Source: a virus | Lineage: Duplodnaviria > Caudoviricetes | DNA: 60,351 nt | Virus record (IMG/VR): IMGVR_UViG_3300034121_000953 | Location: 1 to 60,351 of that record | Reading direction: 5' to 3' (one strand) | In this document: one piece after another, positions 1 to 57,184 of the stretch | Layout: each line of letters begins with the position of its first letter | Numbering within the stretch: the stretch's first letter is position 1 | The notes under the pieces: generated by a model | Told to the model about the DNA's origin: nothing | What the model saw: only the letters and a program-made list of their open reading frames with translations | Database searches by the model: none | Program-made: the position numbers and the translations under genes

Positions 1-2323
1 CTGCAAAAGCACTTGCACCCACCGCAGTGTTGTTGGCTTGAGCACCAGCACCAAGGCCCACGGTGAGTCCTTGGATGGTTGCGCCAAGAGTGCTACTCAG
101 CGTCCCGGTGACTGCTAGGCCGGTGGAGGTAAAGTTTGCTACTGTGATGCTGTCAGTGGAAGACCGCACAGATAAACCGCCAGCAGTGCCAATTGGGCTG
201 CCCGTGGCATTAGAAGCAAGTGTCCATATCTTCCCTCCCGCAGCACCGCTAGAATCTGCTTGCAAAAGGGCATAAGCGTTACTCCCATTGAGGTTAGCTT
301 TTATAGCGCCTGTTGAAGTAATGTCCCCCGTAGCACTCAGCGTCCCGGTGACTGCTAGGCCTGTGGAGGAAAGAATAGTGACATTGCTATTGTTTACTCT
401 GCTGTATATGCTACCGCCAGTAGGAACATTAATTAGCAAATCGCTACTACCGCCACCTCCCCACATACCAGCAAGCGTAGTTGCTGCAAACGCACCATTA
501 AACGATAGCAATCCATACGTTGGGTCGGTACTTACCTGACCAAGACTTATGGCGGAAGTCTGCCCCGACATAGTTACGCCTGACCGCCCCGTTGCACTCA
601 GCGTCCCGGTGACTGCTAGGCCGGTGGAGGAGAAAGAAGCGACATCAGAAGGCCCGAAAACAACACTATTGCCAGCATCAACATACAGTATGTTTACATC
701 TGCGTTATTTGCCGCATTACGCCCATAAATACGCTTTTGATTTGGTATACCTATAACGCCAATTGAAACGCCAGCAGGATTTGTTCCAAACTGTGCGGTT
801 AGGCTTGTTAAATTGCCCGTAGCACTCAGCGTCCCAGTGACTGCGGCTCCGTACCCCATCGTCACTAGTCCAGTGATATAGGCTATTTTTAGAGCCTCTG
901 ATTTTAAGTAAGACTCAATAATAAAATCATGGGAAGTGTTGGAACGCATACCTATGTAATCGCCACTACTTATCAGCATAAACCCGTTTTGATTTGCAGT
1001 GCCAGTCAAAGCGGTATCTGTCGTTCCAGCAGCACGGATAGATGTGCTAAACGTACTCAGCCCACTCGCACTCAGCGTAGTAAAAGCTCCCGTCGTAGGC
1101 GTTGTAGCCCCGACAGTGCCGTTGATGTTGATGGAGGCTGTGCCGGTCAGGTTTGTCACTGTGCCGCTGCTGGGTGTGCCGAGTGCGGGGGTGACTAGGG
1201 TGGGGCTGGTAGCAAATACGGCAGAGCCAGAACCCGTCTCATCAGTCAAAGCGCCAGCAAGATTGGCAGAACTAAACGAACCCAGCAGCGTGGCGTTGCC
1301 TGTGGATGTAATGGCACCGGTTAGGTTGGCGTTTGTAACTACAGTAGCTGCATTTCCAACTGATGTAACCATTCCAGTTAAATTAGCATTTGTAATGACG
1401 TTGCCAGCAGTCAAATCAGCAGCAGTGCCGGTAACGTTGGTCATTATTCCTGAGACAGGAGTTCCAAGTGCAGGCGCTGTAAGTGTTTTGTTTGAAAGAG
1501 TTTGAGTATCAGTAGTGCCTACAACCGTCCCGGCAGGTATTGTTTTGGAAGCCCACGTAGTAAGATTAGCATTGTACGCCTGAACATCAGTACCAATAAC
1601 AACACCCAAATTAGTTCTGGCTGTAGCAGCAAGAGTAGCCCCGGTACCTCCATTAGCAATAGCTACAATGCCTGTAATGTTATCAGCAGTACCCAAAGTG
1701 TTTTGATTAAAGGTGGGCCATGTAAATGTACCTGAACTAAAGTTACCTGAAGCAGGAGTGCCAAGAACAGGTGCCACAAAAGTTTTGTTTGTCAAACTTT
1801 GGGTGTCAGTAGTACCAACAACTATACCTGCGGGTATAGCTTTAGCAGCCCATCCAGCAAGACCAGCAGCATATGCCTGAACATCAACTCCAATAGCTAC
1901 ACCCAAATTAGTTCTTGCTGTGATTGCACTGGCAACATCTGACAAATTATTTGCTGCAAGCAATGCGCCTGCGCTGACTAATTGTTGCCAAGCAGTGCCT
2001 GAGTACACCCACATAATAGTGTTAACACTGTTAAAATACAAGGCACCTGCTGTAAGAGCATTACCATCGTTATCCACAGATGGTGCCGAAGTTTTTGAGC
2101 CAAGGTACCTGTCATCAAAAGCATCATAGCTTGCTGCAGCTGCTGTGGCAGAAGCAGTAGCAGAAGTGGCAGAAGCGGCAGCAGCCGTTGCGCTTACACT
2201 TGCTTCCGCTGCTTTAGTTGCAGCAATATTTGGGTAAATAGAAGAGCTGGTAGTGCCGGGATTATCGTACTCACCGCCAGCGGAGGTGCTGCCGGTTGAT
2301 CCCGGTTTTAATTCATATGCCAT
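1..2323 (-). CDS. Tail fibre, N-terminal part (runs off the window start)
   Basis: ATG at 2323 after an AAGGAG RBS; frame open to position 1 ([11 protein letters not shown]...[12 protein letters not shown]...GALYFNS; duplicated [15 protein letters not shown]; repeated [12 protein letters not shown]). Absent from the ORF track because it has no stop in the window. Confidence 0.85.
95..844. repeat. Near-identical ~35-bp repeats (ACTCAGCGTCCCGGTGACTGCTAGGCCGGTGGAGG) inside the tail fibre gene
   Basis: Copies at 95-129, 335-369, 596-630, partial at 824-844; spacings of 240, 261 and 228 nt are all in frame. Confidence 0.9.
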
Positions 2324-6870: not shown

Positions 6871-9120
6871 TTACATTAATTGTTCCGGGGCCATTGCTGG
6901 GCCGGGTTGATTTGGAGGTGGTGTACTCCCTCTTGGTGCTGAAGCATCGCTGATATCAGAAGAAATGACTGCCCGGGCAATACCAAGCAACTCTTCAACT
7001 GATTTATGAGGGGGAAGCTCAACGCCTTCTTTGGCAGCAGCTATATATAGCTTTGCCCATTCTTGTTGTGATTTATCCAAAGAAACCATAAGTTGTTTGG
7101 CGTTATCCTGCATAGCATTCTTAGCCTGAATGTTGGTCAAATCAAGGGTTGCTTGTTTCTGAGTTATATCAAGCATTAATTTTTGTTCTTCCAACTTTTG
7201 TTTCTTTTCTTGGGCTTCAGCTTCGGCTTGCCTGGACTGTTCAGCCTTCTGTTTAAAGTCCTCGGCAGTATAGTCAACCATGTAGTCAAGAGGATCAAGA
7301 TCCATAGCTTCAAGGGTTTTACAGGCGATAGTTACTGCAGCTGCAGGGTTAACTGCTCCTCCAGCACCTGCCTGTTGCAGCGCGGGAATAAGTTTTTCAC
7401 CGACCATCTGCATTTTCTTGATGATGTTACTGTTGCTATTTTCACCTACATCGGCGTCAATATACATAAGCATATTGTCAGGTAGTGTTGATGGATCAAC
7501 AGATTTAAACAAGTTGTTTTGATCATAATACTTTACCGTTTTACCTTTAAGCTTTGTTCTTAAAGTCTTGTAGACTCCGTTAACCAACCGTGTAAATCCT
7601 GTTTCAGAAAATCTACGGGCCATGTATTGAATACGAACTTGAGCAGCTGACTGTGCTCGTGCCATTTTTTCATCGGAGTTACCGGATACATATAAGGTGT
7701 CATTCAAGCCTTGGGCTGCTTTTGACAGGCCTGTGGCTTGCTCTTTGTGTTGCTGTAGCAATTCTAAAAGAGGAACAGTACCTTGACTGATAGTATCAGG
7801 TGTTAATGCAGCAACAGCACCCGTTGGATTACCGTTAGTTGCAATAATCTGCTTGGGCTTCATGTTTTGAAGGGCAGAAAAATCAACTACATTGGGATCA
7901 GCCAACTTAGGAGAATAGTTTGTCAGGTATACATTTTCAACAAAACCACGCATAATAGCCGTAGTAGCCATTGTAGCAGGCCTGATCATATCAGCAACTG
8001 ACAATCCAAAGAATTCGTGTGGAACTTCAAATGGGCAGAGGGTTGCTAGCGGAATGTACTCGCAGTCTTCTTCAAGCAGAATGGTGGAACCAGCGATAAT
8101 AAAGTGTTTAAGTTCAGCGATACCATCGCCGTCCCTATCGACGCGAAGCCAGCATTCAATAACCGTAATCTGACGGTTCGCTTCAGATGGAAATAGCTCA
8201 CGGCTGTTACCTCCGAGCCAATACTCTTCGCCGACCAAGCGTTTTCTGGCTGCTTGTTCTTCTGTATACTTGGTTGCCCAATCATAACTGCCATCTCCAA
8301 TTTGATCCCAATCAATATCTGCTGCAATATCGGGAAAGAATTTACGAACCTCAGATCGGGTCATATCAATCTGAATACCTACAAATGCTGCATCATCTAG
8401 TGAGTGAGCATCCCGTGTAATACGGAAGCATTCAGGGTGTACATTCTTGATGAGAATACGGGTCTTGTTGTGCTTACGTTTTAGACGCACATCCTTGTAG
8501 ACCGTTGCATACTCAGCATTACCTGTTTCTTGATTGGTTGTCAGTTCTTGTTCGTATTTAAGTTTACCAATTACTTCAATCTCATCATCTGAGAGTAAAA
8601 GATCAAGGTTTTCCTGTGAAATTGAGTCATATTCTTCAAAAGAATAATCAAAATCTTCAATAAATTCCCATCTAACAATACTGTTTTTCCACAGTAGAGC
8701 TGATTTTACCCACGTATTTAGGATCTCCCATCCATTATTCTGTTTAAAAATAGTATAGTTTACCAGATCAGAAGCTACTTTAGCATTGTGAAAATCAGAT
8801 GGTGCTGTACCTACGGGTACAAATCTGGCCAGTTTATTGTTGTTAAACATCAGTTCAGCAATAATGGCAAGGTAACCCTCAATAGCCTCTACTGTATCTG
8901 ATGAAACAATCTGAGAAACCCCTTGAGGTGTCAGATGAAACTGCGGAATCATACCGTATTCGTAGGTAGCCTTCTGCCTTTCTCGTGCAAGGTCAGAACT
9001 ATTTAAGAAATCACCAACAGAGTTCATTACACCCTGTTCAATCATGGCAAGGAGCTCTTCGTCTCCTACTACTTCTTTAAACCTGTCAGTAAATCTGACT
9101 ACATTATTAGTTGTTCCCAT
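6871..9120 (-). CDS. Portal protein
   Basis: ~750 aa; SQIVSSDTVEAIE, DLVNY, WVKSALL, ECWLRVDRDGDGIAE, PHEFFGLSVAD; downstream of terminase. ATG at 9120 has an AAAGG RBS. Confidence 0.9.
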   Translation of the reverse strand: MGTTNNVVRFTDRFKEVVGDEELLAMIEQGVMNSVGDFLNSSDLARERQKATYEYGMIPQFHLTPQGVSQIVSSDTVEAIEGYLAIIAELMFNNNKLARFVPVGTAPSDFHNAKVASDLVNYTIFKQNNGWEILNTWVKSALLWKNSIVRWEFIEDFDYSFEEYDSISQENLDLLLSDDEIEVIGKLKYEQELTTNQETGNAEYATVYKDVRLKRKHNKTRILIKNVHPECFRITRDAHSLDDAAFVGIQIDMTRSEVRKFFPDIAADIDWDQIGDGSYDWATKYTEEQAARKRLVGEEYWLGGNSRELFPSEANRQITVIECWLRVDRDGDGIAELKHFIIAGSTILLEEDCEYIPLATLCPFEVPHEFFGLSVADMIRPATMATTAIMRGFVENVYLTNYSPKLADPNVVDFSALQNMKPKQIIATNGNPTGAVAALTPDTISQGTVPLLELLQQHKEQATGLSKAAQGLNDTLYVSGNSDEKMARAQSAAQVRIQYMARRFSETGFTRLVNGVYKTLRTKLKGKTVKYYDQNNLFKSVDPSTLPDNMLMYIDADVGENSNSNIIKKMQMVGEKLIPALQQAGAGGAVNPAAAVTIACKTLEAMDLDPLDYMVDYTAEDFKQKAEQSRQAEAEAQEKKQKLEEQKLMLDITQKQATLDLTNIQAKNAMQDNAKQLMVSLDKSQQEWAKLYIAAAKEGVELPPHKSVEELLGIARAVISSDISDASAPRGSTPPPNQPGPAMAPEQLM

Positions 9121-9224
9121 TGTTAGCCTTTCTTTCAATCAATCAAGCCAACAATGGCTATATATTAGTGTAACTACTTCTTCCACCATGAGTTACCAAC
9201 AGTTGACACAAGGGAAATTTATTT

Positions 9225-9241
9225 CTATTAGGTACCGACTA
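9225..9241 (-). promoter_or_regulatory. Putative phage RNAP promoter TAGTCGGTACCTAATAG, upstream of portal
   Basis: Copy of a 17-bp motif seen 8 times, always at gene boundaries. Confidence 0.7.
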
Positions 9242-9842: not shown

Positions 9843-11480
9843 TTACAACCACTTTGTTTCTATTTGTTGAAATGAACCCATCTTTTGTGAGAAAGGTACA
9901 CTGTTTGTTGTTAATCTGTCGCCATGTGTCCTGATAACTTCAAGAACAATGGCTAGAGCTATCACTGTATCATCATTATACCCGGAAGAAGCATTAGTTT
10001 TACCATTATCCGTGGATACATAGTTCATAAGCTCACCAATAATTGTCCGAGAAGGAATCAGGATCTCTTCCTGCTCAATAGCATTCTTTAAAAATCCAAT
10101 AATAGCCGGTTTACTTGAGGAGGTAGTCCTCCACCCAATACGGTTACCCTCTTCCTTGGATACATTAGCCATCTTTGTCTGATAATACATGTTGACATAG
10201 TTCATCTGGGTAAGTCTGTTGAGAGTAGCAATTCCCATTGAGTTCGATTCCACAGCAAGTAATGCGTTATTGTAGTAACGACCCAAATAAAACAGAAGAT
10301 CGCCAAACTGACTGGGATCAATAGTGTTATTCCTGTAAACAGCACATACCTCCTTCTTTGCATTCATAACCACACATGATGAGTAGTCTTTGCTGACACC
10401 AAGGGATACATCAGCTCCTATGGCAAATGAATCTTCAAAAGTAGGATACTTAAATATTTCAATTGAACCTTGTCGGGCATCTTCCATCATACGAGATGTA
10501 AAGTTAAACTCTCTGTGGGCAAGAATAGGTTGTGGAATCAATTGAGATAACTTCTCAAGATTAAATACATTAGATCCTGAAACAAGAAAAGCTTCTTCCC
10601 ATGTGGAAGGGTACTCTTGTCTGAACTTATCAACACCACTCTCTGCAATCTTAAGCCTTCTCCAGTACAATTGGTCATCATTTAATAAGTGTCTGGTGAC
10701 AAGTATTTCTTCTTCAGATGTTCTTTCAAAACCATCAGGTGAGCTTCGACTGTACTCAGGCATAAGAAACCACGGAACAAAAATAGGTATATAATCATTC
10801 TCCCCGGCAATAGCGCCTAGCCACAGCCTGTGAAATTCATTACCAATGCCATTAGCCGTGGACTCAAGAATAACTTCTGTGCCGGGAGCTTCGGAGATAC
10901 CCTGAAATAATCCTGAGAGAATCTTGGTGTCATGACCCCAGAATGCTACCTCTGAAAGGTGACAAATAGTGGGAGTCTGTCCTCGACCTGCTTCTGGAGC
11001 GCCTGCTGTAAAGAGCCTGTACCCGGAATCATTGTGCAGGAATTGAATCTCTTTTGCATTAGACTTTTTGAACTCTGGCCTGAAGGCTGGATCCATGTAG
11101 TCAATAATGTTACGGGACATTGTGAATAGTGCATCAGAAGTGGCTGCATCATGTGCCATGACAACTGACTTGTGAAATGGGTTAAGGTATGCTTTCCAGT
11201 AGACTCTGGATGTGGTGAATGTGGAAAGGCCCATCTGTCGTGCTTTGAGAATGATAGCTCTGACTTTACCCTGTTCCTTTAATTGTTTCTCAATAGCTGT
11301 ATTTACAATATGTTGTGCTGCATTGAAGTTAAAAGGTAGGAACCCCTTGGAAGAATCCTTGGGGAGAATTTTGATCTGTTCTTTGGCAAATAGCTCGAAG
11401 TCGTTTCGATATTCATCAAGCTTGGCTCTTTTCTTCAGTTCTCTGAGTGCCTTTAGCTTTGTACCATTGTCTATGGTCAT
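9843..11480 (-). CDS. terL: Terminase large subunit
   Basis: ILKARQMGLST Walker A, HLSEVAFW Walker B, ESTANG motif, IGADVS and DDTVIALAI nuclease motifs. Confidence 0.95.
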   Translation of the reverse strand: MTIDNGTKLKALRELKKRAKLDEYRNDFELFAKEQIKILPKDSSKGFLPFNFNAAQHIVNTAIEKQLKEQGKVRAIILKARQMGLSTFTTSRVYWKAYLNPFHKSVVMAHDAATSDALFTMSRNIIDYMDPAFRPEFKKSNAKEIQFLHNDSGYRLFTAGAPEAGRGQTPTICHLSEVAFWGHDTKILSGLFQGISEAPGTEVILESTANGIGNEFHRLWLGAIAGENDYIPIFVPWFLMPEYSRSSPDGFERTSEEEILVTRHLLNDDQLYWRRLKIAESGVDKFRQEYPSTWEEAFLVSGSNVFNLEKLSQLIPQPILAHREFNFTSRMMEDARQGSIEIFKYPTFEDSFAIGADVSLGVSKDYSSCVVMNAKKEVCAVYRNNTIDPSQFGDLLFYLGRYYNNALLAVESNSMGIATLNRLTQMNYVNMYYQTKMANVSKEEGNRIGWRTTSSSKPAIIGFLKNAIEQEEILIPSRTIIGELMNYVSTDNGKTNASSGYNDDTVIALAIVLEVIRTHGDRLTTNSVPFSQKMGSFQQIETKWL

Positions 11481-11595: not shown

Positions 11596-12093
11596 TTATT
11601 TGTGTAATTTTTTACTTTCAGCTATTTCTCTTGGAACAAAAAATTCTTTATCTTGACGTCTTGAAAATTCCTTTGCCGGGTGTCCTTCAGGTAATTTTGA
11701 TATACGCATTTGTTCTGCTTCTTTTGAGGGAATTTTAACTTTATAAAGGCTTCCCCCTTTTTGAACATCATCAAGATACCATTTAGCCTCTGCTAAGTCA
11801 TCAGTAAACCATCGACCTGTGGCGTCTACTGTAGCTTTATATTCTGGAGTGCTGCGCATCCACTCAGATACTTTTGGATTAGCAATACTTGGAGCTTCTG
11901 CTCTGTATAGCGTAGTCATTGGTTGTGTAGCTGCTTTTACTAATCCTATTGCTGGACGTGCAAGAGGGGCTAAGACAGCTTCAGGGTAAGAACCTTCAAG
12001 AGCTTGACGTTGTTCTAAATATTTACGGTAATCAGGATTATTCATGTCGGATTGCCTCTGTAATACGCTGGTAAATGCTTTTTCTCCGGACAT
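11596..12093 (-). CDS. Hypothetical protein, possible ADP-ribosyltransferase-like fold
   Basis: 165 aa with AAGGAG RBS; TLYRAE...GRWFTDDLAEAKWY...LYKVKI...EFFVP pattern. Fold call is tentative. Confidence 0.55.
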   Translation of the reverse strand: MSGEKAFTSVLQRQSDMNNPDYRKYLEQRQALEGSYPEAVLAPLARPAIGLVKAATQPMTTLYRAEAPSIANPKVSEWMRSTPEYKATVDATGRWFTDDLAEAKWYLDDVQKGGSLYKVKIPSKEAEQMRISKLPEGHPAKEFSRRQDKEFFVPREIAESKKLHK

Positions 12094-12191
12094 GATGCTC
12101 CTTAGTTTTATAAAAAATTATAATAAATTTTCTGGGAGGAAAACTTGTTGTAATTTTCTTAGGGTGGCCCTGCCTGTGTGAGAAAGAATCA

Positions 12192-12813
12192 GGTGTTGTT
12201 GTTGGCTTCCCCTGTTTTCCTTGCGTGGCCCCCTTGTTTCCCTTGGGCGGTCTGCTGGTGCGGTGGTCGCTGTTCCTTCCTTGCGTCTCTCCTTTGGGTC
12301 TGCTCGCGTTTGGGTTGGTTCTTCCTTGTTCTCGTTGGGCGTCTTGCCCGGTCTTTGCGGTTCGTCCGCTTGTGAGGTGTCTTGTGGTTTCTTCTTCTGT
12401 TCTCTCTGGCGTTGCTGCGTCCTTGGTTCGCTCTTTCGCTGTTCCTGGCGCTGCTGCCGCTGCGGTTGCTGGGCCGGTTGCCTTTGCCTGTCCTCTGGTT
12501 TCGGGTTCTGGTGTTCCTGCTTTGCTTCGTGTTGGTTCTCGCGTTGTCCCGTCTTCTTCGTTCCTGCCTGTTTGTTCTGGCGTGGTTTCGTCGCTGTCGT
12601 GGGACGCTCGTCGCTTGGCTGTTGTGGCTGTGGTTGGTGGGCGCTCGTTGGTGTGCTTGGCTTCGGGGCTTGGCGGTGTTGGGTCTCCTGCTGCTGTGGC
12701 GCTGGTTGCTGCCCTTCGTGTTGCCCGTGCCTCCGGTGCGGTGGTTGACGTCTGGGGTGCTCCTGGTTCTTCCGGTCGTGTGTGCCCTGGCTACTTCTGT
12801 GGCGTGTCGTTGT
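12192..12813 (+). other. Adenine-depleted tract (4 A in 622 nt on the + strand)
   Basis: Direct count: A only at 12375, 12604, 12748 and 12793. Confidence 0.97.
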
Positions 12814-12815
12814 AA
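12384..12815 (+). CDS. A-free early gene (143 aa), probable paralog of 13799-14128
   Basis: GAGGTG Shine-Dalgarno at 12374-12379, GTG start at 12384, TAA stop; the three internal A's are the middle bases of Asp, Asp and Tyr codons in this frame. Confidence 0.75.
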   Translation: MVSSSVLSGVAASLVRSFAVPGAAAAAVAGPVAFACPLVSGSGVPALLRVGSRVVPSSSFLPVCSGVVSSLSWDARRLAVVAVVGGRSLVCLASGLGGVGSPAAVALVAALRVARASGAVVDVWGAPGSSGRVCPGYFCGVSL

Positions 12816-12885
12816 GGTCTTTCCCGGTTGGCTCTTTTGCTGGTGCCTCCCGAGAGCGTCTTTGCGTTCTACCTTCTCGGTTATG

Positions 12886-12915
12886 AGAGACCATTGCAAG
12901 GGGTATGTTCCTTGC
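12886..12915 (+). promoter_or_regulatory. Early hairpin motif, copy 1
   Basis: AGAGACC ATT GCAAGG GGTATGTT CCTTGC, just upstream of the ATG at 12927. Confidence 0.6.
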
Positions 12916-12926
12916 TGGAGACTGTT

Positions 12927-13427
12927 ATGGCTAAACGCTACAACCGCATTTGTACCCTCACCAGCCGCCGTACTAACGGTAACGCTGGCCCTTGGGGCAT
13001 TCAGATTGGCCACCCTTGTGGGTTCTTGGCTACGTCCCGGCACCTTTGTTCTCGTCCTGCCTTGTCTAAGGCTGTTGGAGATTTCCTTTTCTCCGATGCC
13101 TCTATGTCCGGTGACTTCGAGGATATGCTGATGATGATGACCGTGTATAAGCTCAAGGTGAGTAAGCGTGTTAAACTTCACCTCAAACAATGGGTGAAGG
13201 CTGGTTGCCCTACATGGAAGAAGAACAGTGCTTTAAGCGCTGGTTTGGTTAAGCTTTACACAGGTAAGTTTGATCGTGAAGTCTCCACATACTACGATGT
13301 GCGTGATGTGAGTAGCAAGTTCTGGAATGCGGCTGACGGTGAATTACCGGTTGATTGTGATGGTGAACCCGTTATCAACTTTGATGAGACCGGTGCTCTG
13401 ATTACTGTGGAGGTGAACAATGTCTAA
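12927..13427 (+). CDS. Early hypothetical protein
   Basis: GGAG RBS and ATG at 12927 (MAKRYNRIC...), in frame with track ORF 12828-13427. Confidence 0.7.
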   Translation: MAKRYNRICTLTSRRTNGNAGPWGIQIGHPCGFLATSRHLCSRPALSKAVGDFLFSDASMSGDFEDMLMMMTVYKLKVSKRVKLHLKQWVKAGCPTWKKNSALSAGLVKLYTGKFDREVSTYYDVRDVSSKFWNAADGELPVDCDGEPVINFDETGALITVEVNNV

Positions 13428-13605
13428 GCTGTTCCACGTTGCCATCGGGATTGTATGGTTCTACATGGCAATGTCCTTGCTAGAGCTGTTCGAGCAGGGC
13501 AACTTTGGCCTGTTCCATGTAGCAGCGATGTTTTTGTGTGGGGGTGTAGCCTTCACACAGGTGAAGATACTGCTGGAAGAAGCAGCAGATACAATGAGGT
13601 ATTAA
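13420..13605 (+). CDS. Small membrane protein (two hydrophobic segments)
   Basis: GGAGGTG RBS; 61 aa, hydrophobic. Confidence 0.65.
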   Translation: MSKLFHVAIGIVWFYMAMSLLELFEQGNFGLFHVAAMFLCGGVAFTQVKILLEEAADTMRY

Positions 13606-13606
13606 T

Positions 13607-13714
13607 ATGTACTACGTATACAATCGCTTGACCGATAAGCTAGTCCTTAAAACTACAGAGATATGGCTGCTCAAGCTATACTCTCCATTGCTCTACGAAG
13701 TGGTGATTCTTTAA
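13607..13714 (+). CDS. Small hypothetical protein (35 aa)
   Basis: GAGGT RBS; MYYVYNRLTDKLVLK...VVIL*. Confidence 0.45.
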   Translation: MYYVYNRLTDKLVLKTTEIWLLKLYSPLLYEVVIL

Positions 13715-13739
13715 ATCCACCTGAGCTCTGCTCATTAAC

Positions 13740-13768
13740 AGAGACCTGCCACGGGTATGTACATGGCA
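13740..13768 (+). promoter_or_regulatory. Early hairpin motif, copy 2
   Basis: AGAGACC TGCCACG GGTATGTA CATGGCA, upstream of the ATG at 13799. Confidence 0.6.
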
Positions 13769-13798
13769 CCTTGTTCCCTAACTTAATGGAGTCCTATC

Positions 13799-14128
13799 AT
13801 GGCTACAGCAAACAAACCTTTCGTTCCTTCCTTCAAAGTATCTGCTAAAATGGAAGTACCATTTATCACCAATAATCCTAATATGGGTGATCGTGTCAGT
13901 CAACCAACTAAGATCACTGATCTTTCTTTTAATGAGGTGACAAGGTCTATTGAGGTGACCTGCGATGATCGTCGTAAGCGTCAGTGCCGTATTGATCGTC
14001 TGTCTAATGACAAGATGGTCAAGGATCTTCAGAAAGCTCTGCAAGAAGCGTATGACAAGAAAGTATCCGTGCAGTTTGTAGCTGCAGGTGGTGCTGATGC
14101 CAACGTGTGGTTCTACCGGGTGATGTAA
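13799..14128 (+). CDS. Early hypothetical protein (109 aa), normal-composition paralog of the A-free gene
   Basis: GGAG RBS; aligns by eye with the 12384-12815 product. Confidence 0.75.
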   Translation: MATANKPFVPSFKVSAKMEVPFITNNPNMGDRVSQPTKITDLSFNEVTRSIEVTCDDRRKRQCRIDRLSNDKMVKDLQKALQEAYDKKVSVQFVAAGGADANVWFYRVM

Positions 14129-14156
14129 TCAATTGCTCTTCTCGGGCATACAACGG

Positions 14157-14187
14157 AGAGACCATGACAGAGGGTAAGTACTCTGTC
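14157..14187 (+). promoter_or_regulatory. Early hairpin motif, copy 3
   Basis: AGAGACC AT GACAGAG GGTAAGTA CTCTGTC, upstream of the ATG at 14222. Confidence 0.6.
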
Positions 14188-14221
14188 GGCCCTTCAATTC
14201 AAATCAAAAGAGAAACCAATC

Positions 14222-14470
14222 ATGAAACAATATCTTTTATTAATGCCTCTTAAAGCATCAGACCTTAGCATAGAAAAAGAAGAGTTTGCTGAAGCAGCAG
14301 CTGAATGGGGAGCCAAACTGGTGGTATCAAAAACCATAACAGGAGCTACAACTAGATTCCTGATTACTCAAACACTTGAAGCGATGGCTCAACTGTGTTC
14401 TAACTGTGACCTTGAAGGGACAGTTGTAGAGGTAACAGGGATATACGATCAGGAGATTGAAGAAGAGTAA
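14222..14470 (+). CDS. Early hypothetical protein
   Basis: 82-aa ORF with an acidic C-terminus. Confidence 0.65.
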   Translation: MKQYLLLMPLKASDLSIEKEEFAEAAAEWGAKLVVSKTITGATTRFLITQTLEAMAQLCSNCDLEGTVVEVTGIYDQEIEEE

Positions 14471-15152
14471 CTAAGTATATTATATAATATACCTCATGAA
14501 TCACTCTTTAAGGTTATCTTTATTTGTTTATTCTTTTAAAGATAAATAAATAAAAGAATTAACTTTAAAGGGTAACTACCAAGTATTACTCAGAGCCCAC
14601 TAACTAAGCCCACTCATGAATACATTATATAATTATATATAGGAGTGGGGACTGGAAGATACCATCTAGACATGTTTTCCGGATTAAACCGAGTTGTAGT
14701 CCCCACTACTACAACAACATCATCTAGACTGTGCTACACTGAGCACTGGTCAAACTGTCACCTGCAAATTACCTCTCTATTAGGTACCGACTAGAATAGG
14801 AGGAACCCCGACTAAATAGTCTCCTATTAGGTACCGACTAGAATTACTAGAAAGGATTACACTAAGCATCACTTCTCTATTAGGTACCGGCTAGAATTAC
14901 TGGTCAATTGTCATCCAAATGATGTTTGGGCGACAATTAGGCGGTAACTGTCACAAAAAATGACAGTTGGTAGTCGCTTTTTGTGTGTGCTTGTCGTGAA
15001 TGAGCAATTACCAGTCGCAACTACACCAAGCACCACTCCAAGCTACACCAAGCACCACTCACAATGTCACATCTAAGCAATTAAAGGTCACAACTACACT
15101 AAATGAAAATTACACCAAAACTAACCCAATAAATCAAACATAACCAAATCAT
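14471..15152. other. Non-coding control region, candidate replication origin
   Basis: No ORF; AT-rich imperfect inverted repeat at ~14505-14570, GTGGGGACT/AGTCCCCAC inverted repeat at 14646-14706, three promoter motifs, tandem CTACACCAAGCACCACTC at ~15021-15060. Confidence 0.55.
14777..14893 (-). promoter_or_regulatory. Cluster of three putative phage RNAP promoters
   Basis: Motif copies at 14777-14793, 14824-14840 and 14877-14893, all pointing left. Confidence 0.7.
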
Positions 15153-15858: not shown

Positions 15859-16182
15859 ATGTCCAAAATAATCATATCAACACAAATATATGAAAACTAT
15901 GCAGCACATGACTGGGATGGTGTCAACCCAGAAGTATGCCCTGAATACTGGAAATCAAAAGGAGGTAATGACTACGCACTACTCAACTTCAAAGGTAATG
16001 AAGATGATGCCACCAAACAAGTAATGGCTGTCAGAGAACAAATAGAAACAGACAACTATGCCTACCGTGAGCACATCATCAACTACCAAACCGTAGATGA
16101 TGACTACATAACAGAATACGAAACATATCAAATGAAATATGACGGTTCTATCAAATACCCAACCAAAGTAATCTCACTATGA
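15859..16182 (+). CDS. Hypothetical phage protein
   Basis: IISTQIYENYAAHDWDG...YWKSKGG; 107 aa. Confidence 0.7.
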   Translation: MSKIIISTQIYENYAAHDWDGVNPEVCPEYWKSKGGNDYALLNFKGNEDDATKQVMAVREQIETDNYAYREHIINYQTVDDDYITEYETYQMKYDGSIKYPTKVISL

Positions 16183-16502
16183 ACACTATCACAATTCAAA
16201 TTGATTCAGTTGACTTCGAAAAACAAGACATCTCGCTCACATCAGACCAAGTACTCGGCCTGTACCAACTGAAAAAAGAACAATCAACACGTATCATTGA
16301 ACTTGAAAAAGAAATCAAACAAAAAGAAACTAACCTCAAATACAAAGACGATAATCTGACAGAAGTCAAAAATGAACTACAACAAGGTCATGCTCTGTTG
16401 TCAGCTCTGGGAGTAAAAGAAAAAACAGAAGAAGAGGAAGTATACTACCGTAAACCACTGTCTATCACCACACGCTTAGCCATCTATCTGGCAACAAAAT
16501 AA
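16179..16502 (+). CDS. Hypothetical coiled-coil protein
   Basis: ATGA overlap; 107 aa. Confidence 0.65.
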   Translation: MNTITIQIDSVDFEKQDISLTSDQVLGLYQLKKEQSTRIIELEKEIKQKETNLKYKDDNLTEVKNELQQGHALLSALGVKEKTEEEEVYYRKPLSITTRLAIYLATK

Positions 16503-19608: not shown

Positions 19609-19625
19609 TAGCCGGTACCTAATAG
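19609..19625 (+). promoter_or_regulatory. Putative phage RNAP promoter
   Basis: TAGCCGGTACCTAATAG. Confidence 0.7.
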
Positions 19626-19631
19626 AGAGGG

Positions 19632-20054: not shown

Positions 20055-20099
20055 AATAATTCCTTAATTTTAAATTTAAAGTCACAACAAAAGTAACTC

Positions 20100-20116
20100 C
20101 TATTAGGTACCGACTA
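20100..20116 (-). promoter_or_regulatory. Putative phage RNAP promoter for 19632-20054
   Basis: Reverse complement of TAGTCGGTACCTAATAG, about 45 nt upstream of the ATG. Confidence 0.7.
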
Positions 20117-26180: not shown

Positions 26181-26788
26181 TGGAATTACTCAAAACTGTA
26201 AAGAAAAATATTACCGGATCAGACAAACTATTTGACATCTACAAATGTACTGTTGATGAAGTTGATACGTTTGAATCTGCATCCGGCAAACAAATGATAA
26301 CAGCCAAAACAGAAGGACAAACATTCAAAGGTCTGTACAACAAATGGGTCTATGATTACCTCTGTGAAAATGAAGGAGAAGAATCATTCATCGTGCTGTG
26401 GAGAGCACCTAAAGGAGACTCAATGCTGGCATATGTAAGGAGTATCTGGGAAGAACACCTGCAAAACATATACAACGTAGAAGTACCCTTCACAGACAAA
26501 GCATATGAAACTCAAAGTACTGATGCTTTCGTCTATATGTGGGTTAATACAGTCACCGACAAAAAATATATAGGCAAACATAAAGGAACCATAGCTGATG
26601 GCTATATTTGCAGCTCTCAAGACATGCTGGCAGAATACGCTGCTAATCCGAGTCATTTCCTCAGAACAGTACTAGCCTATGGCTCTGATCAGGAAATGCT
26701 GGAGCTAGAAACAATACTACTCCTGCAACTAAGGACAAGTCAATCACCTTTTTACTACAACATGTCCAACAACCTGCGTCTAAACTAG
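26180..26788 (+). CDS. Two-domain protein with a C-terminal GIY-YIG-like domain
   Basis: AFVYMWVNTVTDKKYIGKHKG...GYICSS...YYN. Confidence 0.6.
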   Translation: MELLKTVKKNITGSDKLFDIYKCTVDEVDTFESASGKQMITAKTEGQTFKGLYNKWVYDYLCENEGEESFIVLWRAPKGDSMLAYVRSIWEEHLQNIYNVEVPFTDKAYETQSTDAFVYMWVNTVTDKKYIGKHKGTIADGYICSSQDMLAEYAANPSHFLRTVLAYGSDQEMLELETILLLQLRTSQSPFYYNMSNNLRLN

Positions 26789-26802
26789 TCGGTACCTAAT
26801 AG
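26786..26802 (+). promoter_or_regulatory. Putative phage RNAP promoter upstream of the replication genes
   Basis: TAGTCGGTACCTAATAG; its TAG is the stop codon of 26180-26788. Confidence 0.7.
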
Positions 26803-26809
26803 GATCTCC

Positions 26810-26983
26810 ATGCAAAAAGCAACCAAAACAATGATCACCTTAGTTATTGAACTTAACTATTGTCCGGAAGAAGATACACTAAAATTCTTCATTGATGATG
26901 CGTTCGATAAACTACTGCATAAGAATGAATCAGTGCAAATCGTATCAATAGACCACCTATATGAGGAACTCCCCTTAAAATGA
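26810..26983 (+). CDS. Small hypothetical protein (57 aa)
   Basis: MQKATKTMITLVIELNY...; AGGA RBS; ATGA overlap with the deaminase gene. Confidence 0.55.
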   Translation: MQKATKTMITLVIELNYCPEEDTLKFFIDDAFDKLLHKNESVQIVSIDHLYEELPLK

Positions 26984-27444
26984 AAACACAGGCAGACTGG
27001 GATACATTCTATATGAGAATGGCCGATCTAATATCCCAACAAAGCTATGCACAAGACAGAAAAGTAGGTGCCCTCATCGTAAAGAACGGTAACATCATTT
27101 CGTTCTCTTATAACGGTACTCTACCCGGACAACAAAATTGTACGGTAAATGCCTCAGGCAGAACGCTTGACAGCGTCTTACATGCAGAAACACAGGCTAT
27201 TGCCAAGGTAGCTCGATCAACTCAGAGTACTGAAGGGGCAACCCTCTACAGCACCCTAAGCCCCTGTATCGAGTGTGCCAAGCTGATAGCACAAACAGGC
27301 ATATACCGAGTTGTGTACCGAGACGTTTACAAATACACAGAAGGAATTGATTTCCTGAAAAAAGCTGATGTCCTTGTAAATGAACCGGATAACCATAACC
27401 GGCTAATATCCCCGGAAACATTAAGAAGTACAGGACTCCTCTGA
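26980..27444 (+). CDS. dCMP deaminase
   Basis: KVGALIV, YNG, HAE and SPCIECAK zinc motifs. Confidence 0.9.
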   Translation: MKTQADWDTFYMRMADLISQQSYAQDRKVGALIVKNGNIISFSYNGTLPGQQNCTVNASGRTLDSVLHAETQAIAKVARSTQSTEGATLYSTLSPCIECAKLIAQTGIYRVVYRDVYKYTEGIDFLKKADVLVNEPDNHNRLISPETLRSTGLL

Positions 27445-27908
27445 TGACAATTAAAGTTAGAGTTGCAAGCCTCCATGACTGCGAAAAAGAAATCAAAAAG
27501 ATGTTTCACAACATCTTGGCAGATTACTGTGAACGGTTTGGAGTAACCGTAACAAATACAAAAGTAAAAGAAATTATCTTTTGCCTAGTTCATTATGATG
27601 ATGCAGCAATGTCTGCTGGCCTAACCTGCTATGCCGATGATGGTGCAAAAATTCTAATTCAACTTCGAGATCCCTTTCTAAGCGATTGGGAAGGTAACCC
27701 GTATACCATGACAAAGTTTGTAGGAATTCTGGCACATGAAATAGTCCATGCTTGTCAGCATCTAACAGGTCGTAAAGGTATAAAAATAAATAATTTAAAA
27801 TATGACAAAACTAAAACTGAAGAAGCATATTTCTTTTCTCCTGACGAAATCGAAGCAAGAATCTTTGAAGATCCATATGCTTCGCTATACGGTCAAGACC
27901 TACTATGA
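27444..27908 (+). CDS. HExxH metallopeptidase-like protein
   Basis: ILAHEIVHACQ...PDEIEAR. Confidence 0.6.
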   Translation: MTIKVRVASLHDCEKEIKKMFHNILADYCERFGVTVTNTKVKEIIFCLVHYDDAAMSAGLTCYADDGAKILIQLRDPFLSDWEGNPYTMTKFVGILAHEIVHACQHLTGRKGIKINNLKYDKTKTEEAYFFSPDEIEARIFEDPYASLYGQDLL

Positions 27909-32669: not shown

Positions 32670-34880
32670 ATGAACCCCGTAGAATATTTAACTGAACGAG
32701 TAGGTGCTATTGTGCTAGACTCAGCTAAGATCTACAATCATGGATGCTTACTTATAGCCCATCACCCCGGGTGGGTGAATGATCTGGAAATGTTTGTAAG
32801 TGAAGCTTGGGATGTGCTGGCCAGATACTGCATCAGAAACAAGAATGAAACACATAGCGCCTCTGTCAAGCTAACCTTTGCCAGTAACCTTATCGGCAAA
32901 AGATTGACCAAACACCTGAGTATTGATGACAGCAATATCAAATCAACCCTGGCTCTTGGTGACCTTATGCTTGAATCATTCCTGCAAGAAGATCTTATTG
33001 ATATCTTTCGGGAGTATGACGGGTTTAAAGCACCATACATGGTCAAGATTAGATGGCATGTTAACGGCATTAAGCCAGCATTAATCGGTACTACCTTTGA
33101 GAAGCCCTTGCCTATCAAAGGTTTAATTTCCACCATAACCAAAGAACCGTACATCAAAGGATGGAACAGCAATGAAAGGTTTATTCAATACCTTGACTCA
33201 CGGTTTATTAAAGCCCTCGAAGTCTTACGCCAACAACCTTGGTGCCTTAATGAGGAAGTACTGGAAGCTGCTCGACATAACCCTCCGCAAAGTACAATTG
33301 AACTTGTGGATCCTGATGGTGAGATTATCACCCATAGCATCCACTCTGGCGTAAAGCTACCTAAAGGCACTACCCATATTGACGGTGCCAAATACCTTGG
33401 TAAGCGTGACCCCAAGCTACAACGTTTAATCTCCAAATATTATGAGTACAATCAGATCATTCGCAAAGCTGACATCATCAAACAAACAGGCTACCCTTTC
33501 TACCAAGAAATTTCCTGTGACTACCGAGGTCGTATGTACTACGCAGAATCATTCCTTGAGTTTCAGGGTAGTGATTTTGCCAGAAGCCTGTTTATGTTTG
33601 AAAATAAAAAGGTTGTCACTGAAGAAGGCTATGAATGGATGTGTATCCATGCAGCCAACTGCTACAACCAGTCTTACACTATTGATCAGCTAAACAGTAT
33701 TACTTGGCTGACAACTGACTATGCAACACATCTGGAGTCAGAAGGTCTGGATACAATATCTCTGGATAAGATGACCCTCAAAGACAGGGCAGCATGGACT
33801 TACAATAATATGGAGCTTATCACCTCCTATTCGCTGCATGGTACTATTGACAGGCAAGCTGAAAAACCCTACAGTTTTCTGGCAGTATGTAATGAAATCA
33901 TAAGCTATATCCAAGCAGAATTCAATGATCTACCTTATGAATCCGGGCTACCTATCCCAATTGATGGCAGCAATAACGGCTGGCAACATCTGGCAGCTAT
34001 GTCTAAGGACAAACATGCAGGTGAGCTGGTGTCGCTGGTACCTACCCCTATCCAAAAGGACTTCTATGTGGCTGTAGCCAAAGAACTTATCACACTGATG
34101 CCTGACTGGTTTGCCGAGAAACAAATGCCTATGAAGGCTATCCGCAAAGGTATTGCCAAACGTGGTTCAATGACCCGCGCGTATTCAGCAGGCAAACAAC
34201 GTATTGCCAAGAACATGTATGATGATTGCCATGTAGAAGGGTATACCACCAAGTACAGCATCGACGAAGATCAATGCACTCTACTTGCAGGTAACCTGAT
34301 TACAGCTATCAATACAGTATGTGATGGCCCGTTAAAGACCAGCAAGTACCTCCAAAAGATTGCAGAGCATGAGCTTAACAATGACCGTACAGTACTTGAA
34401 TGGACTACACCAAGTGGTTTCCCGGTGATATACAAGGCATACCTGCAGCATGAATTTAAACAACGAGGTACAATCAAAGGCATCAAAGGAAATAAAGATG
34501 GTAGAGTAACTCATGTTGTTAGGATTGACATTACCAATAAAGAAACTGGAGGTAAAGTTGCCTGCCGCAGATCCTTTGCCTCCGGTATAAGCCCTAACGT
34601 AGTTCACAGTTATGATGCTGCTCATATGGCAAATACAATTGTTGCTTTCAACGGTAGTTTTGCGGCTGTACATGATAGTTTCAGCTGCCATGCCTCAGAT
34701 GTACCATTCCTACAAGACACAACCAAGATAACCTTCCAAGCTCAATATGATGTGCCAAACTTCTTTGACATCCTCCAAGACAATTTAATGCAACACAAGG
34801 ATACATTCACACTACCCCAACCCAAGCTGGGCTCACTTGATCTGGCTGACTTAACCAACTCCAAATACTTTTTCTGCTAA
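32670..34880 (+). CDS. Single-subunit (T7-type) RNA polymerase
   Basis: DYRGRMY, IDGSNNGWQH (A), RKGIAKRGSMTRAY (B), WTTPSGFPV, SPNVVHSYDAAH, VHDSF (C). Confidence 0.93.
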   Translation: MNPVEYLTERVGAIVLDSAKIYNHGCLLIAHHPGWVNDLEMFVSEAWDVLARYCIRNKNETHSASVKLTFASNLIGKRLTKHLSIDDSNIKSTLALGDLMLESFLQEDLIDIFREYDGFKAPYMVKIRWHVNGIKPALIGTTFEKPLPIKGLISTITKEPYIKGWNSNERFIQYLDSRFIKALEVLRQQPWCLNEEVLEAARHNPPQSTIELVDPDGEIITHSIHSGVKLPKGTTHIDGAKYLGKRDPKLQRLISKYYEYNQIIRKADIIKQTGYPFYQEISCDYRGRMYYAESFLEFQGSDFARSLFMFENKKVVTEEGYEWMCIHAANCYNQSYTIDQLNSITWLTTDYATHLESEGLDTISLDKMTLKDRAAWTYNNMELITSYSLHGTIDRQAEKPYSFLAVCNEIISYIQAEFNDLPYESGLPIPIDGSNNGWQHLAAMSKDKHAGELVSLVPTPIQKDFYVAVAKELITLMPDWFAEKQMPMKAIRKGIAKRGSMTRAYSAGKQRIAKNMYDDCHVEGYTTKYSIDEDQCTLLAGNLITAINTVCDGPLKTSKYLQKIAEHELNNDRTVLEWTTPSGFPVIYKAYLQHEFKQRGTIKGIKGNKDGRVTHVVRIDITNKETGGKVACRRSFASGISPNVVHSYDAAHMANTIVAFNGSFAAVHDSFSCHASDVPFLQDTTKITFQAQYDVPNFFDILQDNLMQHKDTFTLPQPKLGSLDLADLTNSKYFFC

Positions 34881-37034: not shown

Positions 37035-37051
37035 TAGCCGGTACCTAATAG
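37035..37051 (+). promoter_or_regulatory. Putative phage RNAP promoter for the tRNA/Dps unit
   Basis: TAGCCGGTACCTAATAG ending 4 nt before the tRNA. Confidence 0.72.
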
Positions 37052-37055
37052 GAAC

Positions 37056-50706: not shown

Positions 50707-51152
50707 GGGGATGTGGGCCAGATTATGTTGAAGGGATCAGGTTGAATTGGTATGTCTCTGAGTTGTTGACGGTAGTCAGCCCATGCTGCTTTAGTTGTAA
50801 TAGATACGTCTGGCATTTGAGTCCAATCTGAATCAGCAAGGAGTCGATTACGTTTTAACTTTACAATAATCCATTGTTCAACATTTTTAGTTTCATTGCT
50901 ACGTTGATCAACCCAAGAAAAAGATTCATTGCTCCACTGCATGTAGTTAGGTTGCCTTGTTGATTTAAGCAATGATTGTTCTTCTGTATAATAAACAATT
51001 TTATTATTTTTTATAAAACAAGTTAAAGATGTACCAATACCTTCAATAAGGTTATCGCTGTTTGTTTGTTGAAGAGCAAGATCTTCGTCCTTGCAACATC
51101 CATAGCGCGTAACTTCGCCAGTCAATTCATTATAAATTAAATAATTTTTCAT
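50703..51152 (-). CDS. Tail fibre assembly chaperone
   Basis: RNRLLADSDWTQMPD...WADYRQQLRDIPIQPDPFNIIWP. Confidence 0.8.
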   Translation of the reverse strand: MKNYLIYNELTGEVTRYGCCKDEDLALQQTNSDNLIEGIGTSLTCFIKNNKIVYYTEEQSLLKSTRQPNYMQWSNESFSWVDQRSNETKNVEQWIIVKLKRNRLLADSDWTQMPDVSITTKAAWADYRQQLRDIPIQPDPFNIIWPTSP

Positions 51153-57165: not shown

Positions 57166-57167
57166 TT

Positions 57168-57184
57168 CTATTAGGTACCGGCTA
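57168..57184 (-). promoter_or_regulatory. Putative phage RNAP promoter abutting the endolysin start
   Basis: TAGCCGGTACCTAATAG-AA-ATG on the minus strand. Confidence 0.7.

Follow-up and report, generated by a model that had tools for sequence, protein, structure and literature searches.

What is it that recognizes a small two-hairpin element, repeated three times ahead of the first early genes of an uncultured tailed phage (Duplodnaviria; Caudoviricetes), and is it recognized as DNA or as RNA? The question is raised by the IMG/VR virus record IMGVR_UViG_3300034121_000953, which was analysed over its whole length (60,351 bases, estimated to be 98% complete, and referred to below as ‘the window’). 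A first-pass annotation of that record described three hairpins with differing stems and a conserved loop, and offered two kinds of explanation: promoters for a 1247-amino-acid (aa) protein taken to be an RNA polymerase (RNAP), after the manner of the hairpin promoters of phage N4, or else a structured leader RNA, a protein-binding site or a processing site. The element (termed ‘E1’) is a cassette of about 45 bases, found some 30 bases ahead of the earliest genes in a group of water phages that is widespread and uncultured, and the second kind of explanation is, in our assessment, at least as likely as a promoter for the 1247-aa protein.

The three copies can be read directly in the DNA, at the places first described; all are intergenic and precede the genes that start at 12927, 13799 and 14222. 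Each consists of a first hairpin (H1), a conserved ‘box’ that ends in ACC and overlaps the 3' arm of H1, and a second hairpin (H2) that displays a conserved loop:

12874-12915, plus strand: E1 copy 1 (covariance model score 43.7 bits, expect value (E) 9e-13). H1 pairs TTCTC (12874-12878) with GAGAG (12885-12889) around a loop at 12879-12884; the box is at 12886-12892, with its ACC at 12890-12892 and then the linker ATT; H2 pairs GCAAGG (12896-12901) with 12910-12915 around the loop GGTATGTT (12902-12909).
13726-13768, plus strand: E1 copy 2 (36.6 bits, E 3e-10). H1, in a shifted register, pairs CTCTG (13726-13730) with CAGAG (13739-13743); the box is at 13740-13746, with its ACC at 13744-13746; H2 pairs 13747-13753 with 13762-13768, with one C.A mismatch, around the loop GGTATGTA (13754-13761).
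14139-14187, plus strand: E1 copy 3 (57.9 bits, E 1e-17). H1 pairs TTCTC (14139-14143) with GAGAG (14156-14160); the box is at 14157-14163, with its ACC at 14161-14163 and then the linker AT; H2 pairs 14166-14172 with 14181-14187 around the loop GGTAAGTA (14173-14180).

From the end of H2 to the ATG there are 11, 30 and 34 nucleotides (nt) for copies 1, 2 and 3, respectively. The pattern of box, stem and loop is matched three times in the 60,351-base record, each time on the plus strand, and in none of 100 dinucleotide-preserving shuffles; the loop octamer by itself is not enriched (12 matches against 8.1 expected), and the non-random part is the combination of all three. A covariance model of the element, run over the window with its filters off, recovers the same three copies (E 1e-17 to 3e-10), and its next match has E=0.74, which agrees with the original remark that none was seen elsewhere. 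The comparison with Rfam that had been proposed at the same time came out negative: the Rfam 15 covariance models gave no match at E<=1 on either strand of positions 12000-14600. A DNA search with 12000-15000 against isolated phages gave no match either, and a scan for sigma-70 promoters and terminators found such sites no more often than in shuffles, with no sigma-70-like site on the plus strand ahead of the three E1-led genes.

The relatives used for comparison were collected by way of the T7-like RNA polymerase and the large terminase, each of which gave 80 loci. The collection turned up more than 100 related contigs, from a group known almost solely from metagenomes, in which the marine roseophage CRP-7 is the only cultured relative. 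A regular-expression search and a hairpin-aware scan placed E1 upstream of the terminase gene, on the opposite strand, in many of these relatives, with stems of very different sequence. An alignment of 32 unique E1 instances (alignment A2) was used to build the covariance model. From that alignment, unguided, RNAalifold recovers both H1 (TTCTC/GAGAG) and the four loop-proximal pairs of H2, with compensatory double changes in five of the nine pairs. The two-helix structure pairs 93.2% of 352 cells in the alignment, as compared to 22.9-54.7% when the 3' partners are slid by one to three columns, and its covariation score of 0.409 stands against 0.120 +/- 0.018 in shuffles (0 of 500 reach 0.409). 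Changes on both sides of a pair are seen at five of six pairs in H2 and one of five in H1, the latter being a compensatory change from T-A to A-T in 11 of the 32 rows. Thus, two further parts of the first-pass annotation, namely stems that covary around a conserved loop and an upstream first hairpin, are upheld by the comparison between genomes.

Conservation in relatives, which had been named as a check, was also found. Applied to 81 sources (terminase-anchored loci or CRP-7), the covariance model gave 34 strong matches in 24 of them, all 34 on the early-gene strand; it gave none in CRP-7, in the locus L089 or in the more distant loci L133-L163, which carry other hairpins. Searches of five relatives as whole records returned E1 matches in four (only a weak one, at E 3e-4, in G005) and none in G003, a record estimated to be 57% complete. 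The element of copy 2 is also present in the close relatives L084 and L085, and E1 is so far confined to this one phage clade. A scan of the viral collection with a 14-base pattern of the conserved bases returned at least 119 stretches; among the stretches listed, 107 instances fell in new contigs, of which 99 had at most three of five Watson-Crick pairs beside the loop and eight had four or five. The 14-base pattern therefore does not bring a hairpin along with it by chance.

The anatomy of the element can be described from 39 unique examples, many of which come from related genomes, such that counts of cells overstate the number of independent events; L170 and L225, which have a hairpin with no H1 context, were left out of these counts as chance-like. 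H1 has 5 base pairs (bp) and a loop of 5-12 nt with an A/T-rich end. Its 5' arm is conserved as TCTTC[T/A]C, and the distance from that arm to the box varies by 7 nt. The box reads G[A/T]GAGACC. Six bases at its end are invariant because the search demanded them, and 37 of 39 elements have a G two positions ahead of these, preceded by an A/T-rich TAAMR (position-specific counts). The linker between box and H2 is mostly a single nucleotide (22 of 39). Among the 39, the stem of H2 measures 4-8 bp (mode 5) and comes in at least 11 different sequences, with an internal G.T or A.C in none, and its loop-closing G-C pair is kept in 31 of the 32 rows of alignment A2. The loop, 4-14 nt beyond the box, is 8 nt long with the consensus GGTA[A/T/G]GT[A/T] (GGTAAGTA in 27 elements, GGTATGTA in 8, GGTAGGTA in 2, and GGTAAGTT and GGTATGTT in one each). 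Both a conserved box and a conserved loop had been reported at the outset and both hold, with their wording corrected from AGAGACC and GGTAWGTW to the forms given here. Beyond H2, the leader is poor in G (rare at +6 to +27), and no position in it exceeds 0.6 bits; all 39 elements precede a Shine-Dalgarno site and ATG, 28-38 nt past the stem in 33 of 39 (an estimate from regular expressions). In L219 (1434-1510, plus strand), and also in L283, two complete E1 elements follow one another in tandem at a distance of 38 nt, without an intervening gene.

Covariation in both helices, together with an invariant box and loop that are unpaired, indicates that E1 is read in a folded, single-stranded form. 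The ACC of the box may in addition pair with the GGT of the loop as a small H-type pseudoknot, an inference only, because neither part varies. It is the comparison between genomes, and not thermodynamics, that argues for the structure: single-sequence folding recovers the hairpins of E1 in a manner only modestly better than in shuffles (z -1.7 to +0.4, in long fragments). Folded as RNA, the two hairpins are worth -10 to -14 kcal/mol, and as DNA only -4 to -7 kcal/mol (energies that leave out L096 and L119, four folds in which the range folded clipped the 3' arm).

Any reading of E1 as a promoter needs a polymerase, and the protein nominated for that purpose is encoded at the far end of the late genes, next to two other genes of unusual size:

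37907-41650, minus strand: g1247 (1247 aa), the last gene of the late (virion) block, encoding a divergent T7-fold single-subunit RNA polymerase.
41659-45855, minus strand: a giant gene for a 1398-aa protein, adjoining g1247 on its upstream side.
45865-48687, minus strand: a giant gene for a 940-aa protein, next to the 1398-aa gene.

The gaps between these three genes are 8-9 nt, their products sum to 3585 aa, nearly as much as the one virion RNAP of N4, and the giant trio recurs in the closest isolate, CRP-7 (gp33-gp35). The 1398-aa and 940-aa products, which are possibly ejection proteins, have no sequence match to a family, a phage database or the PDB. For g1247 itself, comparison of sequences is almost silent: it has no match in Pfam, PHROGs, a phage database or PDB sequences; tblastn of the 1398-aa and 1247-aa proteins against phages gave no match; and phmmer together with profile hmmsearch against PDB sequences gave only noise for both. 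Pfam, run on 21 orthologues of g1247, gave a weak match to DNA_pol_A in five (best E 0.002), and an hhalign comparison of the g1247 family with the T7-like family was not significant (probability 0.14%), with one alignment that put motif A on motif A.

The assignment of g1247 as an RNA polymerase, made in the first-pass annotation, is instead supported by invariant residues and by a structure model. The polymerase motifs occur in the correct order (as judged by eye), and among the 21 orthologues R535, D721, Y812 and D1029 are invariant and H1028 and G813 are at least 90% conserved, the invariant set including the aspartates of motifs A and C, the tyrosine of motif B and the arginine of T/DxxGR. 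An AlphaFold model of the C-terminal 808 residues (predicted local distance difference test score, pLDDT, 84.4; predicted template modelling score, pTM, 0.84) has 73 matches in the PDB at E<=1e-3. The best of them are all single-subunit RNAPs, aligned over 600-800 columns at E 6e-10 to 1e-6 (for example, yeast mitochondrial RNAP at 6e-10 and T7 RNAP at 1e-8); among the BFVD viral models, its best matches are T7-like RNAPs and parts of the virion RNAPs of N4-type phages (for example, that of phi50-12 at 2e-8). The model and the conserved motifs together mark g1247 as a divergent single-subunit polymerase of the T7 fold, and the virion gene block of these phages holds a second, very divergent enzyme of this kind. 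The part of the CRP-7 paper that was available annotates only the T7-like RNA polymerase, and literature searches turned up neither a virion-module RNAP nor leader hairpins for CRP-7-type phages.

Because a polymerase that is made late would be useful to early genes only if it were packaged, g1247 is regarded as a candidate virion-packaged enzyme and as one candidate reader of the early cassettes. Its orthologues in relatives are 17-45% identical (CRP-7 gp33 matches around motif C), and the family evolves far faster than the rest of the genome, which suggests either module exchange or strong diversifying selection. One relative, L006, has a T7-like RNAP with 87% identity, a g1247 orthologue with only 18% identity, and a motif A that reads TDASQSNA instead of DDGNQNGIF.

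The other polymerase of the genome is of a familiar type and appears to have a promoter motif (‘E3’) of its own, of the form CTATTAGGTACCG[A/G]CTAG, an 18-nt quasi-palindrome around GGTACC:

32670-34880, plus strand: a 736-aa T7-like RNA polymerase (Pfam RNA_pol, E 7e-52), 60-99% identical among relatives.
9224-9241, 14776-14793, 14823-14840, 14876-14893, 19609-19626, 20099-20116, 26785-26804, 37035-37053 and 57167-57184: the nine copies of E3 in the window.

All nine lie outside the cassette zone, in intergenic gaps of the middle and late regions, three of them in tandem at 14776-14893. In relatives, E3 is found 5-20 nt past the stop codon of the T7-like RNAP gene, and its orientation is uniform among the matches listed for the RNAP-anchored loci (51); orientation is taken from these relatives, the flanks in the window being uninformative. 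Position and sequence indicate that E3 is probably the promoter of the 736-aa enzyme, of the duplex type found in the T7 group, whose known members we take it to resemble, and that it would serve the rest of the genome. Oriented as in the relatives, the copies at 14776-14893 and at 20099 point leftward, toward the terminase operon and the A-free tract described below, and antisense to the E1-led genes. If E3 is a promoter, late transcription would run antisense through the early genes.

The setting of E1 adds a further consideration, since it is not the only cassette of its kind. The late genes, which include the terminase (9843-11480), portal (6871-9138), tail fibre (51149-54475) and the three giant genes (48687-37907), are oriented leftward, and the early and replication genes, including a family A DNA polymerase and the 736-aa RNAP, rightward from 12927 to about 37600. 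The order of features on moving away from the terminase is the same in the window and in its relatives: a boundary motif, a tract free of A, zero to four copies of a second cassette (‘E2’) and then one to three copies of E1, which is found only in the first 3 kb or so beyond the terminase and the A-free tract. In the window, the features that precede E1 copy 1, and the early genes that follow each copy, are these:

12175-12193 (approximate), plus strand: the boundary motif, TGTGTG..AAAGAATCA, a single copy at the start of the A-free tract.
12192-12815, plus strand: the A-free tract, between the late operon and the early cassettes (AT skew -0.61).
12853-12870, plus strand: an E2 copy, with the conserved hairpin AGAGCG-TCTTTG-CGTTCT (which includes a G.T wobble), directly upstream of E1 copy 1.
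12927-13427, plus strand: the first early gene (166 aa), after E2 and E1 copy 1, with no family match.
13799-14128, plus strand: a gene for a conserved 109-aa early protein, behind E1 copy 2.
14222-14470, plus strand: an 82-aa early gene, behind E1 copy 3.

The boundary motif has an exact 12-mer in 28 loci, lies within a hairpin (TTCTTTG/CAAAGAA) in some relatives, and is a candidate for the primary early start site or for a genome end. The A-free tract, 100-700 nt of the early-gene strand in which A is almost absent, reaches at least 100 nt in 30 of 41 sources (and occurs also in L084, L091, L110 and L128, among others); its composition is conserved and its sequence is not. Such a tract cannot hold a stop codon, an ATG, a TATAAT-like element or any palindromic site that contains A/T. 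Ideas as to its role include a silent, restriction-poor leading end, or a leader RNA that is A-less (or, if transcribed leftward, U-less).

E2 consists of two hairpins, the first with a stem that varies and the second conserved as AGAGCG-TCTTTG-CG[C/T]TCT, with compensatory inner pairs; it was counted with a tight regular expression, a permissive one returning mostly noise. It is nearer to the terminase than E1 in all 14 sources that have both, and is also found in L084 (four copies), L119, L124 and L128. Two independent variants of its conserved hairpin pair only by way of a G.T on the sense strand (the template strand would have A.C). The two cassettes replace one another. The close relative L084, with a terminase of 96% identity, keeps only the middle E1, with E2 or another hairpin in place of copies 1 and 3, and in L119 it is E2 that heads the homologue of the gene at 13799-14128. 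Three further loci (L089, L110 and L106) have no E1 and carry instead a cassette termed ‘E4’, at the following offsets from the terminase start on the early strand:

L089, about 1784-1850: E4.
L110, about 2136-2205: E4.
L106, about 702-760 and about 1121-1170: E4.

E4 opens with a hairpin whose stem varies and whose 10-nt loop is conserved (TTCTTCGGAG-like); TGG and a second variable hairpin come next, with an ATG 27-28 nt later. Taken together, E1, E2 and E4 are at least three interchangeable two-hairpin cassettes that stand before homologous early genes, and the early region as a whole is organized as an A-free tract followed by such cassettes.

The proteins encoded behind E1 say little of its function. 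Pfam and PHROGs gave nothing for the three early proteins. A model of the 109-aa protein (pLDDT 86) shows a beta-barrel resembling an oligonucleotide/oligosaccharide-binding (OB) fold, plus a helix, with no PDB match at E<=0.001; the OB-fold B subunits of AB5 toxins come nearest (E 3e-3 to 4e-2, template modelling scores 0.47-0.58). A kinship with toxins was not read into them, such weak matches being taken only as a sign of an OB-like barrel. The OB fold is often used for single-strand binding, and the modelled barrel would be compatible with that role, which does not discriminate between mechanisms. Contigs from RNA libraries (metatranscriptomes) cover small parts of 12100-15100, and show no ends, strand or level. 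One of them covers 12871-13057 with 100% identity, includes E1 copy 1 and starts one base past the E2 hairpin; a second spans E1 copy 3 from gene to gene.

The structure of E1, its covariation, its conservation, its position and its exchange for other cassettes are matters of observation. What they might serve is best approached through the reading that we tentatively prefer, which is held at somewhat below an even chance and is slightly favoured over an N4-style hairpin promoter: that E1 is a cis-acting leader or processing module, acting as RNA on the sense strand of a polycistronic early transcript. Early transcription would begin at the boundary motif (about 12175-12193) or close to it, upstream of the cassettes, and proceed through the A-free tract, and a two-hairpin cassette would then fold in front of each early cistron. 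In the case of E1, H1 (5 bp) and H2 (4-8 bp, of any sequence) would display the ACC linker and the loop GGUA[A/U/G]GU[A/U], with the possibility of ACC:GGU pairing in a small pseudoknot. A conserved factor would read this surface, or the RNA would act on itself, and the cassette would thereby set off the downstream cistron, defining or protecting an RNA end and leaving a G-poor, unstructured leader of about 30 nt before the Shine-Dalgarno site. E2 and E4 would be alternative cassettes for the same job. RNA would thus be the strand that folds, the start of transcription would lie upstream, and the output would be processing, stabilisation or translational insulation.

Several of the observations above point in this direction. 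The Shine-Dalgarno site and ATG that follow all 39 elements, and the G-poor leader, fit a function in the 5' untranslated region. The 14 conserved bases of E1 remain constant despite g1247 orthologues that share only 17-45% identity and differ in their class of motif A, which argues for a better conserved reader or for an intrinsic function of the RNA. No nucleotide is conserved 3' of H2, so that no fixed start site is indicated there. Also counted in favour of an RNA module are the replacement of E1 by structurally different cassettes before homologous genes, the variants of E2 that pair only on the sense strand, the stronger fold as RNA than as DNA, and the boundary motif and A-free tract, which lie upstream of all cassettes and offer a candidate place for a separate primary early promoter. 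The RNA-library contigs that contain E1 count weakly, in view of possible carry-over of DNA.

Other observations weigh against such a module. The RNA-library contigs, which show neither ends nor strand, may be DNA-derived. H2 is almost purely Watson-Crick, with no internal G.U in 39 elements, which is more typical of a DNA inverted repeat, and the C.A mismatch of copy 2 would be a G.T on the template strand. The tandem pair of L219, 38 nt apart with no gene between, is arranged as are early promoters of LUZ7. In addition, the orphan polymerase must have promoters in the early region, where no motif other than the cassettes is repeated; E1 belongs to no Rfam family; and its stems are far too short for RNase III, so that another reader or self-processing would be needed. 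An extreme form of self-processing, in which E1, E2 and E4 are three new and unrelated classes of small self-cleaving ribozyme that cut the early transcript before each cistron, is a long shot. It would explain how cassettes can be swapped at one position without several protein readers, why unpaired bases are invariant while stems drift, why E1 is constant next to a fast-evolving polymerase, and why an RNA-library contig starts one base past the E2 hairpin. Small self-cleaving ribozymes from phages and metagenomes (hammerhead, twister, pistol and hatchet) are similar in size (40-60 nt), in their covarying stems with few invariant unpaired bases, in a possible loop-to-linker pseudoknot and in the occurrence of unrelated classes at equivalent genomic positions; unlike them, E1 is restricted to one phage clade and has no Rfam ribozyme match at E<=1.

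The strongest competitor to the RNA module, which we consider a real and only somewhat less probable possibility, is an early promoter in the style of N4: the hairpin would be extruded from the injected DNA, or stabilised by a single-strand binding protein, and g1247 from the virion would read its loop and box and start a few bases past H2. In N4 and LUZ7, early promoters are hairpins whose variable stem bases need only pair, present in several copies at the leading end and sometimes in tandem (pairs are 33 nt apart), with a second class of hairpin promoter in the same genome; the N4-type promoter has a stem of 5-7 bp and a loop of 3 nt within a GC-rich heptamer centred at -11, and its start nucleotide lies at a fixed 11-14 nt from the centre of the hairpin. 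Such promoters (N4 P1-P3, and the early and middle promoters of LUZ7, read by the virion RNAP and RNAPII) are like E1 in their short inverted repeats and conserved unpaired bases, and E1 shares with them both the pairing-only stem (4-8 bp, mode 5) and the multiple, occasionally tandem, copies at the leading end. As in N4-like phages, the genome encodes a pair of single-subunit RNAPs, of which one belongs to the virion module, where g1247 closes the late block beside its giant neighbours; the gene order mirrors that of N4, and the same three giant genes recur in CRP-7. The near-perfect Watson-Crick repeats of H2, the lack of a sigma-70-like site ahead of the three genes, the fact that the T7-like enzyme is already served by E3 and, weakly, the OB-like fold of the protein behind E1 copy 2 fit as well. 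The resemblance fails, however, in the details that define an N4-type promoter: the loop of E1 has 8 nt rather than 3 and is not part of a GC-rich heptamer, there is no conserved base at +1, and a second upstream hairpin and a linear box are included. The candidate polymerase, of 1247 aa, comes from one gene in a set of three separate giant genes, where N4 has a single 3500-aa protein, and it has no match to the N4 enzymes at the level of sequence. The N4-type hairpin, which requires supercoiling and a single-strand binding protein, folds on the template strand, which the mismatch in H2 of copy 2 would favour, whereas the wobbles of E2, a cassette able to replace E1, favour the sense strand. 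As DNA, the hairpins are worth only a few kcal/mol; E1 follows E2 in 14 of 14 sources with both and is therefore not the first element on the entering DNA; an RNA-library contig covers copy 1; and the packaging of g1247 is itself only inferred. E1 is, moreover, unchanged in genomes with g1247 of classes I, II and III, which are less than 20% identical. A link between the presence of E1 and the class of g1247 was tested and failed, the class II records G001 and G002 also carrying E1 (among five whole records). A compromise in which the region of H1 is the promoter, RNA starts at the G of G[A/T]GAGACC, and H2 becomes the 5'-terminal stem-loop of the early mRNA would reconcile a promoter with the presence of H2 in RNA, and the A/T-rich TAAMR followed by a near-invariant G (37 of 39) and a purine-rich box presumably resembles the region that melts, and the sequence transcribed first, in T7-group promoters. 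We nevertheless judge it improbable: a rigid duplex promoter would not tolerate the 7-nt variation in the distance from 5' arm to box (H1 loops of 5-12 nt), and the RNA-library contig also holds the 5' arm of H1.

Two other readings take E1 to be a signal in DNA, and neither accounts well for its placement. The 736-aa polymerase is well conserved (60-99% identity), as might suit an invariant cis element, and the GGTA...TACC of E1 is reminiscent of the GGTACC core of E3. It is nonetheless very unlikely, and the least probable of the readings weighed here, that E1 is the promoter of that enzyme, for which the separate, duplex-type E3 is present in nine copies in the window and, in relatives, directly after the RNAP gene in one orientation among the matches listed; E1 occurs only at the first early genes, which lie 20 kb ahead of the gene for that enzyme, and its internal spacing is variable. 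T7-group duplex promoters span about 20 bp with fixed spacing and no need of pairing, a description that E3 fits and that E1, with its variable spacing and conserved pairing, does not. Somewhat less remote, yet still unlikely, is a signal of another sort, such as a hairpin for a primase or at a replication origin, a site of nicking or packaging, or an operator bound by a DNA-binding protein, any of which could take the form of a conserved inverted repeat, with purely Watson-Crick stems, near a probable leading genome end. Dimeric operators conserve their arms and not their spacer, the reverse of E1, in which the arms vary and the spacer is fixed. Each copy also keeps within a narrow distance of a start codon downstream and shares the orientation of the gene (34 of 34 strong matches), and the one to three copies each stand before a gene and can be swapped for other cassettes.

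The favoured RNA module can be set beside two further systems. The early genes of T7 are each preceded by an RNase III processing hairpin, which is long and irregular, with about two helical turns that are mostly paired and an internal loop. E1 is similar in being a structured cassette that occupies every intergenic gap of a polycistronic early region, following a cluster of promoters and a long leader, and that would set off each cistron; it differs in consisting of separate hairpins of 5 bp (H1) and 4-8 bp (H2), with a sequence-specific loop. The nut site of lambda is made of boxA and boxB, a linear box and then a small hairpin with a conserved loop, and the put site of HK022 of two adjacent stem-loops that act on the polymerase in cis. 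E1 is like both in its box and small hairpin, or paired stem-loops, within early leaders. It is unlike them in that it has no similarity of sequence to them and no Rfam match, recurs before consecutive genes and not once per operon, and is accompanied by no identified N-like protein and no evident terminators. Both RNAs are named in a review of N4. E1 is thus a cassette that would work in the manner of an N4-type hairpin promoter or of a T7-type intercistronic processing site while being a member of neither family.

What is at stake differs between the two leading readings. Should E1 be a promoter, a lineage distinct from the N4-like phages has evolved or acquired hairpin promoters, and their loop geometry is new; should it be an RNA module, it represents a so far undescribed, possibly catalytic, family of leader RNAs in phages, recognized by a reader of its own. 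Either way, it provides a defined 45-nt target, complete with natural compensatory variants, for the study of a programme of virion-delivered polymerase.

Two minor points concern other parts of the window. The first-pass annotation had also supposed that a pair of paralogous proteins might bind the element; no such pair was found, the adjacent, equal-sized open reading frames at 15859-16182 and 16179-16502, and those at 26980-27444 and 27444-27908, being unrelated. At the left end (95-1080, plus strand), an 11-mer family (ACTCAGCGTCC / GCACTCAGCGT) occurs four times, about 230-260 nt apart, within an open reading frame of 774 aa on the minus strand, and is probably the trace of a repeated protein domain.

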